A stretch of DNA of 40,933 bases from a virus, in the UHGV virus genome UHGV-0179541; one strand, given 5' to 3'. Below, in pieces: positions 2,188-40,933 of this stretch. The position numbers and the translations under genes were made by a program. How positions within the stretch are numbered: the first letter of the stretch is position 1; the number at the start of each line of letters is the position of its first letter. Below the pieces are notes generated by a model, which saw only the letters and a list, made by a program, of their open reading frames with translations, was not told the origin of the DNA and made no database searches.

Positions 2188-4077
2188 ATGAAATCCGAAA
2201 CGCTAACCATCCAGCAAATTTTCCAAAATCAACGACAATATCGTGTTCCATTCTATCAACGTGCCTACGTATGGACGCAACGAAACCAATGGTCAGCTTT
2301 GTTGGAGGATATCTTCGAAAAAGCACAGAGCCGACTTTCGGGAACAAAACCAACCCCTCATTTCCTCGGCGCGGTGGTGCTGGAACCTCAACTCAAAAAC
2401 AGCTTGTTAGGTGTAGATACCATACATATTATTGACGGCCAGCAACGTTTAACCACTCTTCAATATATTCTGGCATCCATTCGATTATCATTGCGTGCTA
2501 CAGGCCTTTCTGAACTGGAAGGGTTAGTATTGACTTGCTTGAAAAATACAAACGAAGCAACGATGAGAAATAAAAAGGTAGAATGCTTCAAACTGTGGCC
2601 AACTTTTCGAGATCAAACTCATTTTATTCAAAGTCTTAATGTTGATAATATTGACGATCTCCGTAATGTATTTTCTGATAGCTTCACGCAACATGGTACG
2701 TTACGTAAACATTTCAACCACCCGCCGTCACTAGAGGCATTATGGTTTTTTACTGAAGCCTTTATAAAATGGATTAAAATAGAAAAACACTCACCACAAG
2801 AAAATGCTGTAGCACTAATTGAGGCTGTCTTGACGGATCTGAAACTGGTAAGCATATTTCTCGAAGCTGAAGATGATGCCCAAATAATTTTTGAAACATT
2901 AAATGGGCGAGGAGCGGAACTTCATGCAACGGATCTTATTCGCAACTATATCTTTATGTGCGCTGAGCATGAAAATATTAATGCTATTGAATTATATGAA
3001 AATGAGTGGAAGATCTTTGAAGATAAATACTGGTCGGAAAAGCAACGCCGTGGACGTATTAATAAACCACGCATGGAGTGGCTTGTACATGCGACATTGC
3101 AATCAGAAAGGCAGCGTGAAATTGATCTGTCTCGCCTTTACAATGAGTATCGTGATTATGTAAGTAAGGACTTGCCTTCACAACGAGCAGATCTGCAAGT
3201 AAAGCGCCTCAAACAATATGCATCACAATATAAAGAATTGGTTGGTGGTTTTGGCACAACCCCCATCTCACACTTTAGACATCGCATCGCAGCCTATGAT
3301 GTGACGACACTCTATCCGCTTGCTTTGTTCATTTCGATAGCTAACATCGCCGATGATGAGAAAGCAGCCATGTATAATGATCTTGTCTCCTACGTAGTAC
3401 GAAGATCCGTATGTGGCCTGACGCCAAAGAATTACAACAATGTATTTATGAATGTATTGCGACACTTGTCTAAAACGGAAATTTCCAGTGTTGAGTTACG
3501 TAATATCCTCAATAGCTTAAATGGCGAAGCCTCACGTTGGCCTGGGGACTCAGAATTTCTCAACGCTTGCATCAATGCTCCACTTTATCCTGGCAGGCTC
3601 GACGCACCGAAAATGCGCTCAATGTTAACGGAACTTGAAAGAGAACTTTGTCGCCAAGTGAAGACAGAAAAGCCTGATGTTCCAAATCTTTCTAATCTCG
3701 ATATCGATCATCTTATGCCTCAAAGTTGGTATTCCTGTTGGCCTCTCGAAAATGGTCATATGGTGACAAATTCAGATGCTACGGTAATGAACCAAATTGT
3801 TCTGTCTGGAACCGATCTTACCCCTGAACAGCTACTGGTAAGGAAACGGCAACAAGCGATAGCTACGTTGGGAAATCTAACTTTGCTTAACCTTAGCGTA
3901 AACCGTTCCGTTCAGAATGCTGTATTTCTGAAAAAACGTGATGCTCTCATCGTCCATACCAATCTACGACTGAACATACCACTTATACTTAAGGATAAAT
4001 GGGATGAGAGTGAAATACTGGAGCGAGGTAAAAAGTTGGGGGAAATTGCATTGAAAGTATGGCCAAAATACGATTAA
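2188..4077 (+). CDS. DUF262/DUF1524 two-domain protein, GmrSD-family type IV (modification-dependent) restriction endonuclease-like
   Basis: N-terminal motifs VPFYQRAYVW and IIDGQQRLTTL (DUF262 / ParB-like signature DGQQR); C-terminal DIDHLMPQS region consistent with the DUF1524 His-Me finger; AT-richer than phage core. Confidence 0.75.
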   Translation: MKSETLTIQQIFQNQRQYRVPFYQRAYVWTQRNQWSALLEDIFEKAQSRLSGTKPTPHFLGAVVLEPQLKNSLLGVDTIHIIDGQQRLTTLQYILASIRLSLRATGLSELEGLVLTCLKNTNEATMRNKKVECFKLWPTFRDQTHFIQSLNVDNIDDLRNVFSDSFTQHGTLRKHFNHPPSLEALWFFTEAFIKWIKIEKHSPQENAVALIEAVLTDLKLVSIFLEAEDDAQIIFETLNGRGAELHATDLIRNYIFMCAEHENINAIELYENEWKIFEDKYWSEKQRRGRINKPRMEWLVHATLQSERQREIDLSRLYNEYRDYVSKDLPSQRADLQVKRLKQYASQYKELVGGFGTTPISHFRHRIAAYDVTTLYPLALFISIANIADDEKAAMYNDLVSYVVRRSVCGLTPKNYNNVFMNVLRHLSKTEISSVELRNILNSLNGEASRWPGDSEFLNACINAPLYPGRLDAPKMRSMLTELERELCRQVKTEKPDVPNLSNLDIDHLMPQSWYSCWPLENGHMVTNSDATVMNQIVLSGTDLTPEQLLVRKRQQAIATLGNLTLLNLSVNRSVQNAVFLKKRDALIVHTNLRLNIPLILKDKWDESEILERGKKLGEIALKVWPKYD

Positions 4078-35680: not shown

Positions 35681-35926
35681 ATGCTTCAAATGTTAACTCT
35701 TGAAGAATGGGCTACTGAAAAATACAGAAGCAATCCTCCAAGCGTGTCCACATTGCGTCGTTATGCTAAGCAGAATTTATTTTGCCCACCGGCCATGAAA
35801 CAAGGTCGGTTATGGCGAGTGCGTGAGGACGCCGAATTAGTTGGGGAGTTGGTAACGCCAATAATTAAGAAAAATGACTCATTACTTTTGCAACGGATTT
35901 TGAGTGATGGCAGCCAGACCGCGTAA
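35681..35926 (+). CDS. xis: Excisionase-like protein
   Basis: 81 aa overlapping the integrase start, the usual xis position. Confidence 0.55.
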   Translation: MLQMLTLEEWATEKYRSNPPSVSTLRRYAKQNLFCPPAMKQGRLWRVREDAELVGELVTPIIKKNDSLLLQRILSDGSQTA

Positions 35927-37034
35927 GAATAATGTTTCAGTCCCTAACTTATATCCGCTTTATAGTAGGAAGGTAAATAAAGTCTATTGGCGGTATAAGC
36001 ATCCAGTAACAGGAAAATTCCATGCTTTGGGAACAAACGAAGCTGAAGCTATCGCTATTGCCACTGAGGCCAACACTCGCCTGGCTGAACAAAGAACCCG
36101 GCAGATTCTGGCTATCAGTGACAGGATCGCAACCAGCAAAGGAAAGGCTATCACAACGTCAACCTGGTTAGATCGCTATCAAGCGATCCAGGATGACAGG
36201 CTTAAAAGTGGTGATATAAGACTCAACACCTATAAGCAAAAAGCTAAACCAGTATCCTTGCTCAGAGAACGAGCAGGAATGAAGTTGATCTCAGCCGTTG
36301 ATGTAAGAGATATAGCACAATTGCTTGACGAGTATATCGCTGCCGGGCAGCCGAGAATGGCGCAAGTCGTAAGGTCTGTATTGATCGATGTATTTAAGGA
36401 AGCACAGCATTATGGCGAAGTTCCGCCAGGGTATAACCCTGCTCTTGCGACGAAGCAACCCAGACGGAAAATTACCCGTCAACGCCTCAGCCTGGAAGAA
36501 TGGCAAAAAATATTCGATATCGCAGACGCCACTCATCGTTATATGGGAAATGCCATGCTCCTAGCTTTGGTCACTGGGCAGCGTTTGGGAGATATATCCA
36601 AAATGAAATTTAGTGATATTTGGGAGGATCATCTTCACGTCATTCAGGAAAAGACTGGAAGCAAAATCGCTATCCCTCTTTCTCTACGTTTGAATGCTAT
36701 CAATTGGAGCCTACGAGATGTAGTAGCTCGCTGCCGTGACTACGCAGTGAGCCCATACTTGGTGCATTTTTTCCGTTCAACCTCACAAGCAGAACGTGGT
36801 GCACAGGTTAAATCCAATACATTGACGATGAATTTTAGTAAAGCAAGGGATTTAGCAGGGATTGACTGGGGGGATGGCTCACCTGCCACATTCCATGAAC
36901 AAAGGTCTTTATCTGAACGCCTGTACAAAGAACAGGGGTTAGATACGCAAAAATTACTTGGTCATAAAACACAACAGCAGACCGATCGTTACCATGATGA
37001 TCGAGGCAAAGGATGGAGCAAAGTAGCATTGTGA
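35904..37034 (+). CDS. int: Tyrosine integrase (phage integrase family, icd-specific e14 / phage-21 type)
   Basis: 376 aa; C-terminal catalytic region ending HKTQQQTDRYHDDRG; prophage sits in icd. Confidence 0.85.
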   Translation: MMAARPRKNNVSVPNLYPLYSRKVNKVYWRYKHPVTGKFHALGTNEAEAIAIATEANTRLAEQRTRQILAISDRIATSKGKAITTSTWLDRYQAIQDDRLKSGDIRLNTYKQKAKPVSLLRERAGMKLISAVDVRDIAQLLDEYIAAGQPRMAQVVRSVLIDVFKEAQHYGEVPPGYNPALATKQPRRKITRQRLSLEEWQKIFDIADATHRYMGNAMLLALVTGQRLGDISKMKFSDIWEDHLHVIQEKTGSKIAIPLSLRLNAINWSLRDVVARCRDYAVSPYLVHFFRSTSQAERGAQVKSNTLTMNFSKARDLAGIDWGDGSPATFHEQRSLSERLYKEQGLDTQKLLGHKTQQQTDRYHDDRGKGWSKVAL

Positions 37035-37390: not shown

Positions 37391-38350
37391 ATGGAAAGCT
37401 ATACTTTTGAATTGAAAGGAAATGTATTTGGCTTTTTTCAACGCAATGGTGAGGATTGTTTTTTATACATTAACACTGGTTTATTCCCTAAAGTAACCTA
37501 CTACCAATGGAGTCATTGGCAACGAGGAAAGGATAACTATAATGAAACATATCCTGATGCAATAAAAACAGATGAAATAGCAAAGGCGATTGGTTATTTT
37601 TCTTGGAATCAATGCTTTGATCGTTGTCCATACCAACCTATAGTTATCAGTTTATCTAAAAAAACAGAAGCAGGAATATTCTACCCTAGAATGAATAGAG
37701 GAGAACCAAAACTATATAACCAACAAATAGCGGAGGCACGAATCCTTGATGAAGTAAGGTCTTTTAATAATATATGTGATTCATTAAATGAATTATTTAA
37801 CTATATAGATCCTGATACTGGTAATTTGAGTTGTTTTGGTAATAAAATCAGAGAAATATTAATTATTGCATGTACTGAGGTTGAATACTTACTTCACAAT
37901 TTTCTTACAGATAATGGTTACACTGTTAACAACAATAGATTTAGTACTAACGATTATGTTAAATCTCTTGGTTTGCTGAAATTAGATGGGTATTCTACGA
38001 GGCTCGTTTACTATCCATATTTGCAAGAGTGGTGCCCATTTAGTGGTTGGGATGAATCTAAACCAACTACTAGTTTGACTTGGTATGACGCATATAATGC
38101 AGTTAAGCATAATCGCGGAACAAACAAGCAAAAGGCATCTCTTAACGCTGTAATAAATGCAGTAGCTGCCATTCATATTTTACTCGTAGCTCAATATGGG
38201 AGTGAGATATTTAATAGCCCGATGCACTCTAATTTCTCAAGCATTTTTAATACAACGAAATATCCTTCTTTCTTAGCAAATGATCTTCAGTGCCCAACAA
38301 TGAATCATGATCAAATCCTATGGGATAAAAAGTCATATTTATTTTCATAA
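37391..38350 (+). CDS. Hypothetical cargo protein, 319 aa, Trp/Tyr/Cys-rich, AT-rich (candidate single-gene defence or Abi protein)
   Basis: Strong ribosome-binding site (AAAGGAAACAAT ATG); AT-rich by eye; between int and the att site; no family recognised. Confidence 0.55.
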   Translation: MESYTFELKGNVFGFFQRNGEDCFLYINTGLFPKVTYYQWSHWQRGKDNYNETYPDAIKTDEIAKAIGYFSWNQCFDRCPYQPIVISLSKKTEAGIFYPRMNRGEPKLYNQQIAEARILDEVRSFNNICDSLNELFNYIDPDTGNLSCFGNKIREILIIACTEVEYLLHNFLTDNGYTVNNNRFSTNDYVKSLGLLKLDGYSTRLVYYPYLQEWCPFSGWDESKPTTSLTWYDAYNAVKHNRGTNKQKASLNAVINAVAAIHILLVAQYGSEIFNSPMHSNFSSIFNTTKYPSFLANDLQCPTMNHDQILWDKKSYLFS

Positions 38351-38472
38351 AAAATTGAAAACACCTTAGCCCGCTTCTGGCACGGAGTGGATAGAAAGCA
38401 AGGCATAAGTAAGTTATTAATTTAAGTTCTTCAAGAAAGTGCCCACTCTATATATTTGATGTCTTAACAGAT

Positions 38473-38510
38473 TAATATGTAGGTGTCTTTATAGCGACAC
38501 CTACATATTA
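38473..38510. terminator. Long perfect hairpin (15-bp stem TAATATGTAGGTGTC, 8-nt loop) between convergent cargo genes
   Basis: Read directly; T run follows on the plus strand. Confidence 0.6.
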
Positions 38511-38513
38511 ATT

Positions 38514-39533
38514 TCAATTATTTTTTTTATCAATTATATGACCACTGTTAGTGCCATAATACTTACCAGAAGCAACACCTTGCTTATAAAAATCATTCAA
38601 TACTTTTATTAGCAATCGTGCATCTGATGCATCTTTTATTACTAGCCTACCATTTTTTTCCTCTAACTTAGCACCTTCGAATATATTTAACGTTTCTTGA
38701 TATTTTATTATTATGTCAGGACTTAAATTTTCGTGGTTCTTTTTTTGAGCTATGCTCGCAATAGTTCGCTGAAGTGTTTTATTAGTTAAAATAACCTCTT
38801 CCAGAATTTTTATATTATCTATAATAGAAGCATCAGAAATAACCTTTAACACACTTCTTGCATTTTCCACAAATTCTTTTTCGATCCCGATAATTTGTTC
38901 AAACCCCAATTTCGATACAATATAAATCTTGTTATTTTTAAAGATAAAATCTATTTTTTTGTCAAAACTCACTGTCTGCATCGGAACGACTTTCATTGTA
39001 GCACTATTAACATCAAAGATAGCCTGCATTTTTTGAAAGGTATTCAATGGAGTATCTGTTGCCACCTTAGATTTTGTTAGCTTCCTATAAATGGTAAAAC
39101 CATCATCTTGTGTAGATATTTTTAAACAAAAAGCCAATATATCAGACTTAACTTCCTCTAGACTCTTTAATATATTTATTCCTGAGCCTTTATTTATTTT
39201 TTCTAATACTTTCCTGAATTCAAGGTCTTCAATATTTGCATAACCATAAATAGCGTCAGTCCCATCATCAGAAATCACTGAGTAGTCATGATACTCTAAT
39301 TCGTTGTTGCCTACCATTTTGTTTAATGTATCCAATGACCCAGTTTTAAAAAAATCCACCATTTTTTTGTCAAGACTCACCTTATAGATATCAAATATAA
39401 ATCTGTTTTCTGATGAGACTGAAGAATCTTTATTAATTTTCTTTGTTATCAAATAACATTTCATCGAAAATGTATTCGAGTGATAAAGATTCATTAGTGA
39501 ATTTAAAATACCTTTAATGTCTATTTCCGTCAT
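38514..39533 (-). CDS. Soluble 339-aa cargo protein, second gene of the two-gene operon (Kiwa KwaB-like by layout only)
   Basis: Start ATG overlaps the upstream stop (TAATG); Lys/Asn/Ile-rich, no TM segment; very AT-rich. Confidence 0.55.
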   Translation of the reverse strand: MTEIDIKGILNSLMNLYHSNTFSMKCYLITKKINKDSSVSSENRFIFDIYKVSLDKKMVDFFKTGSLDTLNKMVGNNELEYHDYSVISDDGTDAIYGYANIEDLEFRKVLEKINKGSGINILKSLEEVKSDILAFCLKISTQDDGFTIYRKLTKSKVATDTPLNTFQKMQAIFDVNSATMKVVPMQTVSFDKKIDFIFKNNKIYIVSKLGFEQIIGIEKEFVENARSVLKVISDASIIDNIKILEEVILTNKTLQRTIASIAQKKNHENLSPDIIIKYQETLNIFEGAKLEEKNGRLVIKDASDARLLIKVLNDFYKQGVASGKYYGTNSGHIIDKKNN

Positions 39534-40153
39534 TATTCTAATTCCTGATATTTAGCATAGAAGAGTTTGTAACCAATCTTTTGAATTTTGATACTGTCAT
39601 CTTCGTCCAAATATTTATTCGAACAAATTATCATTCCTTTCTTTTTTTGGCCGCCACTATTTATATACTCAATGCTGTAAAGTGAGTACTTTATAGCTAA
39701 AGTTGGATTTATAAGAATCATTGATGAGTTAGAATAAATAAGAAATGTAACCAGTAGCAGAATAGCTAAAGAAAATACACTCATGGGGTCAGAAAGATCT
39801 TGAAAAAGAAATGGCAGAAGATATGTAAAAAGATAACTTATAGATTCACTGTTTTTATTTTCTATGTCGACTATTTTTACAAAATCCCCATCATTATCAA
39901 TGCGTCTTTCCATATTTGATAATAAGAATATTAAACCAACAATACCAAAAACGACAAGAAGAAATATAATCGTAACCGCACCAAAATTTTCAATGTATAA
40001 TATTAATGCCTTCTTGTTCACCCCCCCCCAGTTGAGGTAATCTTTTTTCTTGTATAGTTGATTTACGGTCATAATTAAAAACAAAGGCATGTAAGACACC
40101 AAAAATAGTGTCAACCTTGCTCCTATTTTTAACTCTTCTTTTCGTGATGACAT
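39533..40153 (-). CDS. Four-helix membrane protein, first gene of the two-gene operon (Kiwa KwaA-like by layout only)
   Basis: Hydrophobic helices at roughly aa 20-37, 63-86, 111-125 and 131-148 of the track ORF; probable ATG start at 40153 after GAGG; contains the G9 tract. Confidence 0.55.
   Translation of the reverse strand: MSSRKEELKIGARLTLFLVSYMPLFLIMTVNQLYKKKDYLNWGGVNKKALILYIENFGAVTIIFLLVVFGIVGLIFLLSNMERRIDNDGDFVKIVDIENKNSESISYLFTYLLPFLFQDLSDPMSVFSLAILLLVTFLIYSNSSMILINPTLAIKYSLYSIEYINSGGQKKKGMIICSNKYLDEDDSIKIQKIGYKLFYAKYQELE
40021..40029. repeat. Homopolymer tract, 9 C on plus strand (G9 in the membrane-protein coding strand)
   Basis: Read directly; encodes WGGV. Confidence 0.9.
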
Positions 40154-40438
40154 AGTTCCAAAACCTCGAATCAACGCTTTCTTAGGTACTGATAACTGTA
40201 CCTAGTTTAACCTATAATATCTATGCAACATATTGATATATTGGTTAAAATTCCTTCTTTGATATCCCCTTACTTTCCCATTGATCAGTATGAAAAAACG
40301 TGAGCAATGTCCGTTATTGGCACTGAACGGACCTAAATATTAACGAGCATCCACCTGAAATGATCATAAAAAACTGAGGTATGCCTAATTGGAACTAGGT
40401 AATAGGGCTACCCTCTGAACATCCAAACTACTAGGGGG

Positions 40439-40471: not shown

Positions 40472-40494
40472 CCGTTAGCAGCCTAACAAAAAAC

Positions 40495-40517
40495 AACGGG
40501 AGCGTTACGCTCCCGTT
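40495..40517 (-). terminator. Rho-independent terminator of icd (AACGGGAGCG-TTAC-GCTCCCGTT)
   Basis: Hairpin immediately after the icd stop, followed by a T run on the minus strand. Confidence 0.75.
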
Positions 40518-40540
40518 AATAAATTTAACAAACAACGGCA

Positions 40541-40933
40541 TTACATGTTTTTGATGATTGCGTCGCCAAACTCGCTACATTTCAGCAGTTTAGCACCTTC
40601 CATCAGACGTTCAAAATCGTAAGTTACGGTCTTGGCGTTGATCGCGCCTTCCATACCTTTAACAATTAAATCAGCCGCTTCGGTCCAACCCATGTGGCGT
40701 AACATCATCTCAGCGGAGAGAATAATAGAGCCAGGGTTTACTTTGTCCTGACCGGCGTATTTCGGCGCAGTACCGTGGGTGGCTTCAAACAGGGCGCATT
40801 CGTCACCGATGTTTGCTCCAGGGGCGATACCGATACCGCCAACCTGCGCTGCCAGAGCGTCAGAAATGTAGTCACCGTTCAGGTTCATACAGGCGATAAC
40901 ATCATATTCAGCCGGACGCAGCAGGATCTGTTG
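40541..40933 (-). CDS. icd: Isocitrate dehydrogenase, 3' portion (gene continues beyond the window)
   Basis: C-terminal sequence [38 protein letters not shown]; ORF open to the window edge. Confidence 0.9.

Follow-up and report, generated by a model that had tools for sequence, protein, structure and literature searches.

A divergent kwaA-kwaB pair, very probably an intact Kiwa operon, as integrase-proximal cargo of an e14-like prophage

Introduction

Kiwa is an anti-phage system of two genes, kwaA and kwaB. In characterised Kiwa, KwaA is a four-transmembrane inner-membrane protein with a cytoplasmic beta-barrel built from its intracellular loop and C-terminus; both genes are required and lambda Gam inhibits the system (PMC11785009). 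The same work counted 1,713 E. coli genomes with Kiwa and placed about half of the dereplicated loci on mobile elements, some 200 of them prophages (PMC11785009). Prophage-borne Kiwa is therefore ordinary. A second point of reference is the prophage e14 of E. coli K-12, in which the slot between icd and intE is filled by ymfD, ymfE and lit.

Here we describe two neighbouring minus-strand genes of the virus genome UHGV-0179541, analysed as one stretch of 40,933 nucleotides (the window). An earlier reading, made from the letters of the window alone (the sequence-only reading), had taken the pair to be cargo lying beside int, a candidate anti-phage system with the gene order and protein sizes of KwaA/KwaB. 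Profile matches, predicted fold and gene order all agree with that proposal. The pair is very probably an intact Kiwa (kwaA-kwaB) operon, carried as low-GC (guanine plus cytosine) accessory cargo, or moron, at the int-proximal end of an e14-like prophage in icd. The finding itself is already known in kind: the system is a described one, its sub-family is covered by PADLOC models built by 2023, and the location is of a known type.

The kwaA-kwaB gene pair

The pair consists of the following features.
38514..39533, minus strand: kwaB, Kiwa soluble subunit, 339 aa, with an N-terminal alpha/beta domain and a C-terminal DUF4868 domain; ATG start; PADLOC, Pfam and fold evidence.
39531..39535, minus strand: TAATG, in which the kwaA stop overlaps the kwaB start, with shared base 39533; read in the sequence.
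39533..40153, minus strand: kwaA, Kiwa membrane subunit, 206 aa; ATG at 40153; PADLOC, profile and hydropathy evidence.

The TAA stop codon of kwaA and the ATG of kwaB were found to overlap by base 39533 (sequence GAATAATGACG), which confirms the claim that two coupled minus-strand open reading frames (ORFs) share a single base. The sequence-only reading had given the membrane protein 213 aa, the length of the mechanical ORF, which reaches a TTG at 40174 (39533..40174, minus strand). That ORF is present, and its true start is likely the ATG at 40153, yielding 206 aa, because RefSeq uses this ATG, public gene calls record the exact 206-aa product and the PADLOC alignment begins there. Both ORFs are full length in the window, every residue invariant in the family is kept, and the guanine tract of kwaA (see below) is of the in-frame G9-T-G allele. 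The impression by eye that the pair is more AT-rich than the phage core was borne out by a GC of 0.305 for kwaA and 0.294 for kwaB, against 0.549 for positions 6-25 kb of the window and 0.454 for int.

KwaA matched the PADLOC KwaA model PDLC00212 from model position 2 to 204 of 205 (E=2.3e-95), and 12 further KwaA sub-models matched more weakly. The Pfam release searched was without a KwaA model, hence no Pfam match was obtained for KwaA itself; PF28043 (KwaA) does stand in the precomputed annotation of identical and related KwaA copies. Against the PDB, the single sequence found KwaA with E=7e-10, and a 42-sequence KwaA profile aligned colinearly with the solved KwaA 9mrg_A (residues 14-190 against 9-180 of 195, E=1.3e-7).

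Kyte-Doolittle analysis of the single sequence and of the 42-member family alignment gave strong hydrophobic segments at residues 11-32, 48-81 and 119-147 (206-aa numbering). A weaker segment at about 103-118, conserved in the same alignment, falls at the position of the third transmembrane helix (TM3) of solved KwaA. The four hydrophobic helices that had been claimed, and with them a four-transmembrane topology, are an acceptable prediction that draws partly on KwaA homology. The colinear alignment also runs across intracellular loop 1 and the C-terminus, consistent with a cytoplasmic beta-barrel formed by these regions.

KwaB matched the PADLOC KwaB model PDLC00223 over model positions 2-338 of 339 (E=1.3e-121), with nine other KwaB sub-models matching more weakly, and Pfam PF16162 (KwaB/DUF4868) over residues 130-316 with 55.3 bits, where the gathering score is 26.3. 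DUF4868 and the PADLOC models were the profiles that the sequence-only reading had proposed for a search; the Pfam threshold was passed and both proteins are full-length PADLOC matches. RefSeq names the 339-aa protein 'Kiwa anti-phage protein KwaB-like domain-containing protein'. The maximum KD19 value of KwaB was 1.15 and no transmembrane-like segment was present, in keeping with its description as the soluble member of the pair.

A 21-sequence KwaB profile matched the PDB KwaB chain 9mrx_K with E=2e-6. The AlphaFold2 (AF2) model of KwaB, with a predicted local distance difference test (pLDDT) score of 78.6, had only six significant PDB matches, all of them KwaB chains of 9mrx, 9mtn and 9nyu (E 6e-13 to 2e-10, probability 1.00, TM-score 0.54-0.63, 340-353 aligned columns); the next PDB match had E=0.018. 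The fold search of the second protein, suggested at the outset, thus led to solved KwaB and to nothing else at significance. The predicted model displays the two-domain fold of the solved structures, an N-terminal Rossmann-like alpha/beta domain followed by DUF4868.

A divergent Kiwa sub-family

Several observations weigh against the identification and were considered together. Both proteins scored under the NCBIfam equivalog cut-offs: 85.9 bits for KwaA against NF041622 (cut-off 100 bits) and 50.3 bits for KwaB against NF041623 (cut-off 200 bits). A single-sequence phmmer search of KwaB against the PDB returned no KwaB match, and KwaB is only about 14-15% identical to solved KwaB. The published residues of the KwaA-KwaB interface (P100/N101/Q103 and Y157 of KwaB, H156 and Y181 of KwaA) are unconserved, in a mapping that is unreliable at such identity. 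Only two of the six published DNA-contact residues are kept at the aligned position, and two more fall on or beside an invariant basic residue. The promoter scan found no convincing sigma-70 promoter upstream of kwaA. Outside the window, kwaA is frameshifted in about one third of its indexed occurrences and kwaB is often broken too; selection to retain the operon in E. coli is therefore not strong.

For the DNA contacts, all mapped with the uncertainty that about 15% identity brings, D169 aligned with the invariant D190 and R233 with a K/R column at 255. N134 aligned with the invariant K150, beside R149, and K187 lies next to the invariant K207. R142 and R167 correspond to T158 and S188 and are not conserved. 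The promoter scan as a whole was uninformative, with 20 sites found where 18 +/- 4 were expected and none well placed upstream of kwaA.

The models NF041622 and NF041623 define close equivalents of the reference Kiwa. Scores below their cut-offs therefore account for the weaker RefSeq naming (the KwaA of this pair is called 'hypothetical') and point to a divergent sub-family, not to a protein outside the family. PDLC00212 and PDLC00223 scored far above the remaining KwaA and KwaB sub-models, which suggests that the pair belongs to a distinct Kiwa sub-family. The unconserved interface would fit one that has co-evolved in a separate sub-family, a suggestive reading of the alignment.

For the pair itself the evidence covers family membership by profile and fold, gene order and overlap, intactness and mobile context; the functional steps are carried over by homology to characterised Kiwa (PMC11785009). 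On that model, a KwaA tetramer would recruit KwaB dimers into a fence-like, membrane-spanning supercomplex. Its trigger would be the membrane perturbation where a phage attaches or ejects its DNA, or that caused by a conjugative pilus. Activated KwaB would bind the incoming DNA through DUF4868, stalling replication and blocking late transcription. The infected cell would survive, so that the response would not be abortive infection, and DNA mimics such as lambda Gam might inhibit the complex. For the prophage, the benefit would be a lysogen shielded from competing phages.

Relatives and distribution

The complete 3.5-kb cargo was present in 4 of 5,426 complete E. coli genomes, with kwaA broken in three of the four; none of the four is ECOR8, ECOR12, ECOR49 or D9, strains with experimentally tested Kiwa operons. 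The exact intact KwaA was indexed in 430 blocks of a larger assembly collection. Look-ups of intact KwaA and of its frameshift remnant yielded 18 E. coli loci, and all 18 showed the order icd / kwaA kwaB / ORF319 / intE xisE. Literature searches by the RefSeq accessions of KwaA, KwaB and ORF319 returned no papers, and none of relevance came from searches that paired Kiwa with e14/icd or with phase variation.

Relatives of the pair were found in Klebsiella, Salmonella and Vibrio, with kwaA-kwaB order and overlapping ends conserved and always on mobile elements. Those of Klebsiella and Salmonella are 79-83% identical in KwaA and 66-75% in KwaB, with the same sizes and a low GC. The Klebsiella carrier is a proA-linked island that also holds BstA and a Cap4-like nuclease; the Salmonella carrier is a lambdoid prophage, with the pair in the moron slot between Q and lysis. 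Unlike the pair in the window, the Klebsiella, Salmonella and Vibrio relatives have neither the kwaA G-tract nor an ORF319 neighbour.

Among the Gammaproteobacteria with this sub-family KwaA was 61-83% identical, and KwaB drops to about 34-37% where the taxa lie further away, as in Aeromonas. In the group of Vibrio, Aeromonas and their like, identity was 50-65% for KwaA against 33-37% for KwaB, and a word-indexed search recovered 175 KwaA relatives and only 26 KwaB relatives. By these figures KwaB, the soluble DNA-binding subunit, appears to evolve far more quickly in this sub-family than KwaA, the membrane sensor.

A more distantly related pair of the same sub-family, in Vibrio campbellii, lies in an apparent chromosomal integron cassette array. 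Small cassettes for acetyltransferases and toxin-antitoxin pairs are numerous there and an integron-type integrase is found near rplT, a setting which suggests that Kiwa can travel as an integron cassette.

Prophage setting

The prophage around the pair is bounded and marked by the following features.
2188..4077, plus strand: GmrSD-family type IV (modification-dependent) restriction enzyme, 629 aa; Pfam GmrSD_N and GmrSD_C, PADLOC mREase_IV at E=0 over the full length.
35907..37034, plus strand: intE, e14-type tyrosine integrase, one border of the cargo slot; ORF and RefSeq annotation of a 99.9% identical locus.
40494-40518: icd terminator hairpin; terminator-like scan.
40540-40705: phage-supplied replacement icd 3' end (attachment region), duplicate of 1188-1353.
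40541..40933, minus strand: icd 3' end, running off the window; RefSeq annotation.

The two copies of the icd 3' end (40540-40705 and 1188-1353) are 85% identical over 166 bp; since this duplication stands at both ends, the whole prophage, of about 39.5 kb, is within the window. The 99.9% identical RefSeq locus carries xisE, intE, ymfI, ymfK, ymfT and ymfL as flanking genes, and the prophage is for that reason assigned to the e14 type. The suggestion that the pair occupies the place of lit in e14, between int and icd, was upheld by the gene content of that slot in K-12. The GmrSD gene adjoins iraM at the opposite prophage end, at the mcrA position of e14. With GmrSD at one end and Kiwa at the other, defence cargo is thus found at both prophage ends.

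The G-tract of kwaA and a possible decay of the operon

One further feature lies within kwaA.
40021..40029, minus strand: G9 homopolymer, in frame, in the codons TGG GGG GGG GTG (W-G-G-V); the sole G/C run of at least 7 in the window.

In the relatives the W-G-G codons read TGG GGA GGT/GGA/GGG and the longest G run is 4; the tract is therefore derived in the E. coli lineage. A survey of 21 loci besides the window gave G9-T-G (11 nt, in frame) at 10 loci as well as in the window, uninterrupted G12 at 5, G10 at 6 and G7AGG at 1. G10, G12 and G7AGG frameshift kwaA, and the out-of-frame alleles leave a 126-aa remnant, indexed in 222 blocks of the collection that holds the intact KwaA in 430. A metagenome scan for unbiased G-tract alleles gave two loci, not enough to estimate how frequent each allele is. 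Slippage that inactivates the gene, phase variation or assembly error could lie behind the frameshifted alleles.

A deletion that shortens a kwaB A7 run to A6 at 38960 accompanies some copies of G10 and of G12 and is missing from others. Repeated change in these homopolymers follows, provided that the differences are not in part assembly errors. In the lineage with an uninterrupted G-tract, kwaB has recurrently lost one base from its A8 or its A7 run (38528 and 38960), leaving fragments of 193 and 131-135 aa; in other loci, further kwaB lesions leave fragments of 149+131, 53+282 or 262 aa. The uninterrupted-G-tract lineage also carries an IS3 insertion beside xis/int. Kiwa has been lost repeatedly in this lineage.

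Such losses raise the question whether the window pair, although Kiwa by descent, is itself a decaying or silent passenger that leaves the lysogen undefended. The ratio of intact to remnant KwaA in the collection, the many frameshifted copies with independent kwaB lesions, the lack of a clear promoter in the scan and the rarity of the cargo among complete genomes, mostly with a broken kwaA, all lean that way. Against it stand the state of the window copy, in which the ORFs are full length, the family-invariant residues kept and the G9-T-G allele in frame, and the presence of the intact allele in eleven other loci with 0-2 substitutions. That the window copy is such a passenger is unlikely.

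The same tract could be read as a contingency locus at which slipped-strand mispairing toggles Kiwa ON and OFF, that is, as phase variation. The G9 run lies in a gene of 30% GC; it arose through synonymous changes of GGA/GGT to GGG that are confined to the E. coli lineage, and the association of uninterrupted G10 and G12 each with both states of 38960 speaks for repeated change. The window allele, however, is interrupted (G9-T-G) and identical in 12 loci, and the variable lineage gathers kwaB lesions, which resembles decay more than reversible switching. An uninterrupted in-frame G11 was not seen, in a look-up that could retrieve only the exact protein of the window or the remnant; G10 and G12 could differ through homopolymer assembly errors; and homopolymer phase variation is not something for which E. 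coli is known. We regard phase variation as improbable.

The neighbouring gene ORF319

A third gene, unrelated and absent from the sequence-only reading, lies in the cargo slot as well.
37391..38350, plus strand: ORF319, AT-rich cargo gene, 319 aa, HEPN-like, convergent with kwaB; ORF, GC 0.329.
38469..38514, between the convergent kwaB and ORF319: terminator-like hairpin with a perfect 19-bp stem, abutting the kwaB stop; terminator-like scan and sequence, a consensus match only.

The hairpin is probably a bidirectional terminator or insulator between kwaB and ORF319.

ORF319 belongs to a family of at least 625 homologue clusters, all unnamed. ORF319 and 55 homologues gave no match in Pfam, NCBIfam or PADLOC, including the HEPN, Abi and defence families there; the sole database match was phrog_19461, in which no function is assigned. 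An ORF319 profile found nothing in the PDB, and Foldseek of ORF319 against the PDB found nothing significant. The AF2 model is confident and its helical core resembles HEPN domains, in Foldseek matches below significance. The Rx4-6H motif is absent from the family, in which an invariant R is nowhere followed by H at the required distance; the invariant cluster is instead Y235-N236-x-x-K239-H240-x-R242. Compared with HEPN toxins and Abi proteins (HEPN-MNT 5yep, 7ae2 and 8xdj; AbiV 9bj5; the HEPN domain of Csm6), ORF319 has no sequence-profile link, and it differs from them in its extra N- and C-terminal beta-rich parts and in having no adjacent MNT antitoxin gene.

Lone homologues of ORF319 lie between gpV and gpS in P2-like prophages of E. 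coli and Citrobacter, a slot that we take to be P2 orf30. In Yersinia, a P2-like prophage carries one next to int and an OLD-family nuclease; in Citrobacter, an icd prophage has one at its end; and in Acinetobacter one occupies an island, with Fic, an SNF2 helicase and CRISPR-Cas close by. The hotspot of P2 described by Rousset et al. 2022 (PMC9122126) is that between gpA and gpQ, not the gpS/gpV slot of these homologues.

Could the convergent HEPN-like ORF319 be the partner or effector of this Kiwa variant, making it a three-gene system? The trio kwaA-kwaB-ORF319 was invariant in 21 of 21 E. coli icd loci examined and a low GC is common to all three genes. Yet ORF319 is on the opposite strand with the hairpin between, no ORF319 homologue lies close to the Kiwa relatives of Klebsiella, Salmonella and Vibrio (65-83% identity), and ORF319 homologues stand without Kiwa in the P2-like prophages, in other icd prophages and in the Acinetobacter island. 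Wherever Kiwa is broken in an E. coli locus, moreover, ORF319 keeps its full 319 aa. A three-gene system is very improbable, and ORF319 was rejected as a third Kiwa component on the grounds that Kiwa relatives lack it and that its homologues occur without Kiwa.

Our best guess for ORF319 is a HEPN-like protein of phage exclusion or abortive infection, encoded as a single-gene system. It may, with considerable doubt, be both a defence gene and one still undescribed, the first recognised member of a widespread unnamed prophage-borne family whose core would be HEPN-like and whose active site would be the non-canonical Y-N-x-x-K-H-x-R. If so, the prophage would hold three defence modules, GmrSD, Kiwa and ORF319.

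Discussion

The analysis identifies the pair as Kiwa with high confidence. The fallback that the sequence-only reading had kept in reserve, an undescribed membrane-anchored two-gene module resembling Kiwa in gene order and sizes only, could appeal to the great divergence of KwaB, the empty phmmer search and the NCBIfam scores, but it is refuted by the full-length PADLOC matches of both proteins, the above-threshold Pfam match and RefSeq name of KwaB, and the profile and fold matches to solved KwaA and KwaB and nothing else, and its probability is negligible.

The locus is a further case of prophage slots near the attachment site being filled with anti-phage cargo, here the lit slot with Kiwa and the mcrA slot with GmrSD. 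The pair is under-annotated, as seen in the 'hypothetical' KwaA of RefSeq and in the NCBIfam equivalogs that miss both proteins. Because the sub-family is far from characterised Kiwa, with KwaA well conserved and KwaB diverging quickly, it is a useful comparator for the essential parts of the KwaA-KwaB interface and of the DNA channel. Naturally occurring kwaA knock-outs are at hand in the G10 and G12 frameshift alleles. ORF319 is the sole element here that could yield something new.

Comparison with known systems

Characterised Kiwa (E. coli O55:H7 RM12579 and ECOR strains; PDB 9mrg, 9mrr, 9mrx, 9mtn, 9nyu and 9o0i; PMC11785009) is likewise a two-gene kwaA-kwaB operon on a mobile element. As there, KwaA is of about 200 aa, with a predicted four-transmembrane topology and a conserved NPTLA-type segment after the fourth helix, and KwaB is of about 320-340 aa with the same predicted two-domain fold including DUF4868. 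The window KwaB has 339 aa where the reference has 315, and similarity to characterised KwaA is recognisable mainly across the C-terminal two thirds.

In the e14 prophage of K-12, the slot icd / ymfD ymfE lit / intE has a chromosomal position identical to that in the window and the same integrase/excisionase module. Its cargo gene content is wholly unlike that of the window prophage. Lit acts abortively, as a peptidase with EF-Tu as its target for cleavage; Kiwa is by contrast a non-abortive membrane and DNA-binding system. The two prophages nevertheless share a phage-exclusion gene in the same slot, Lit in e14 of K-12 and, very probably, Kiwa in the prophage of the window.

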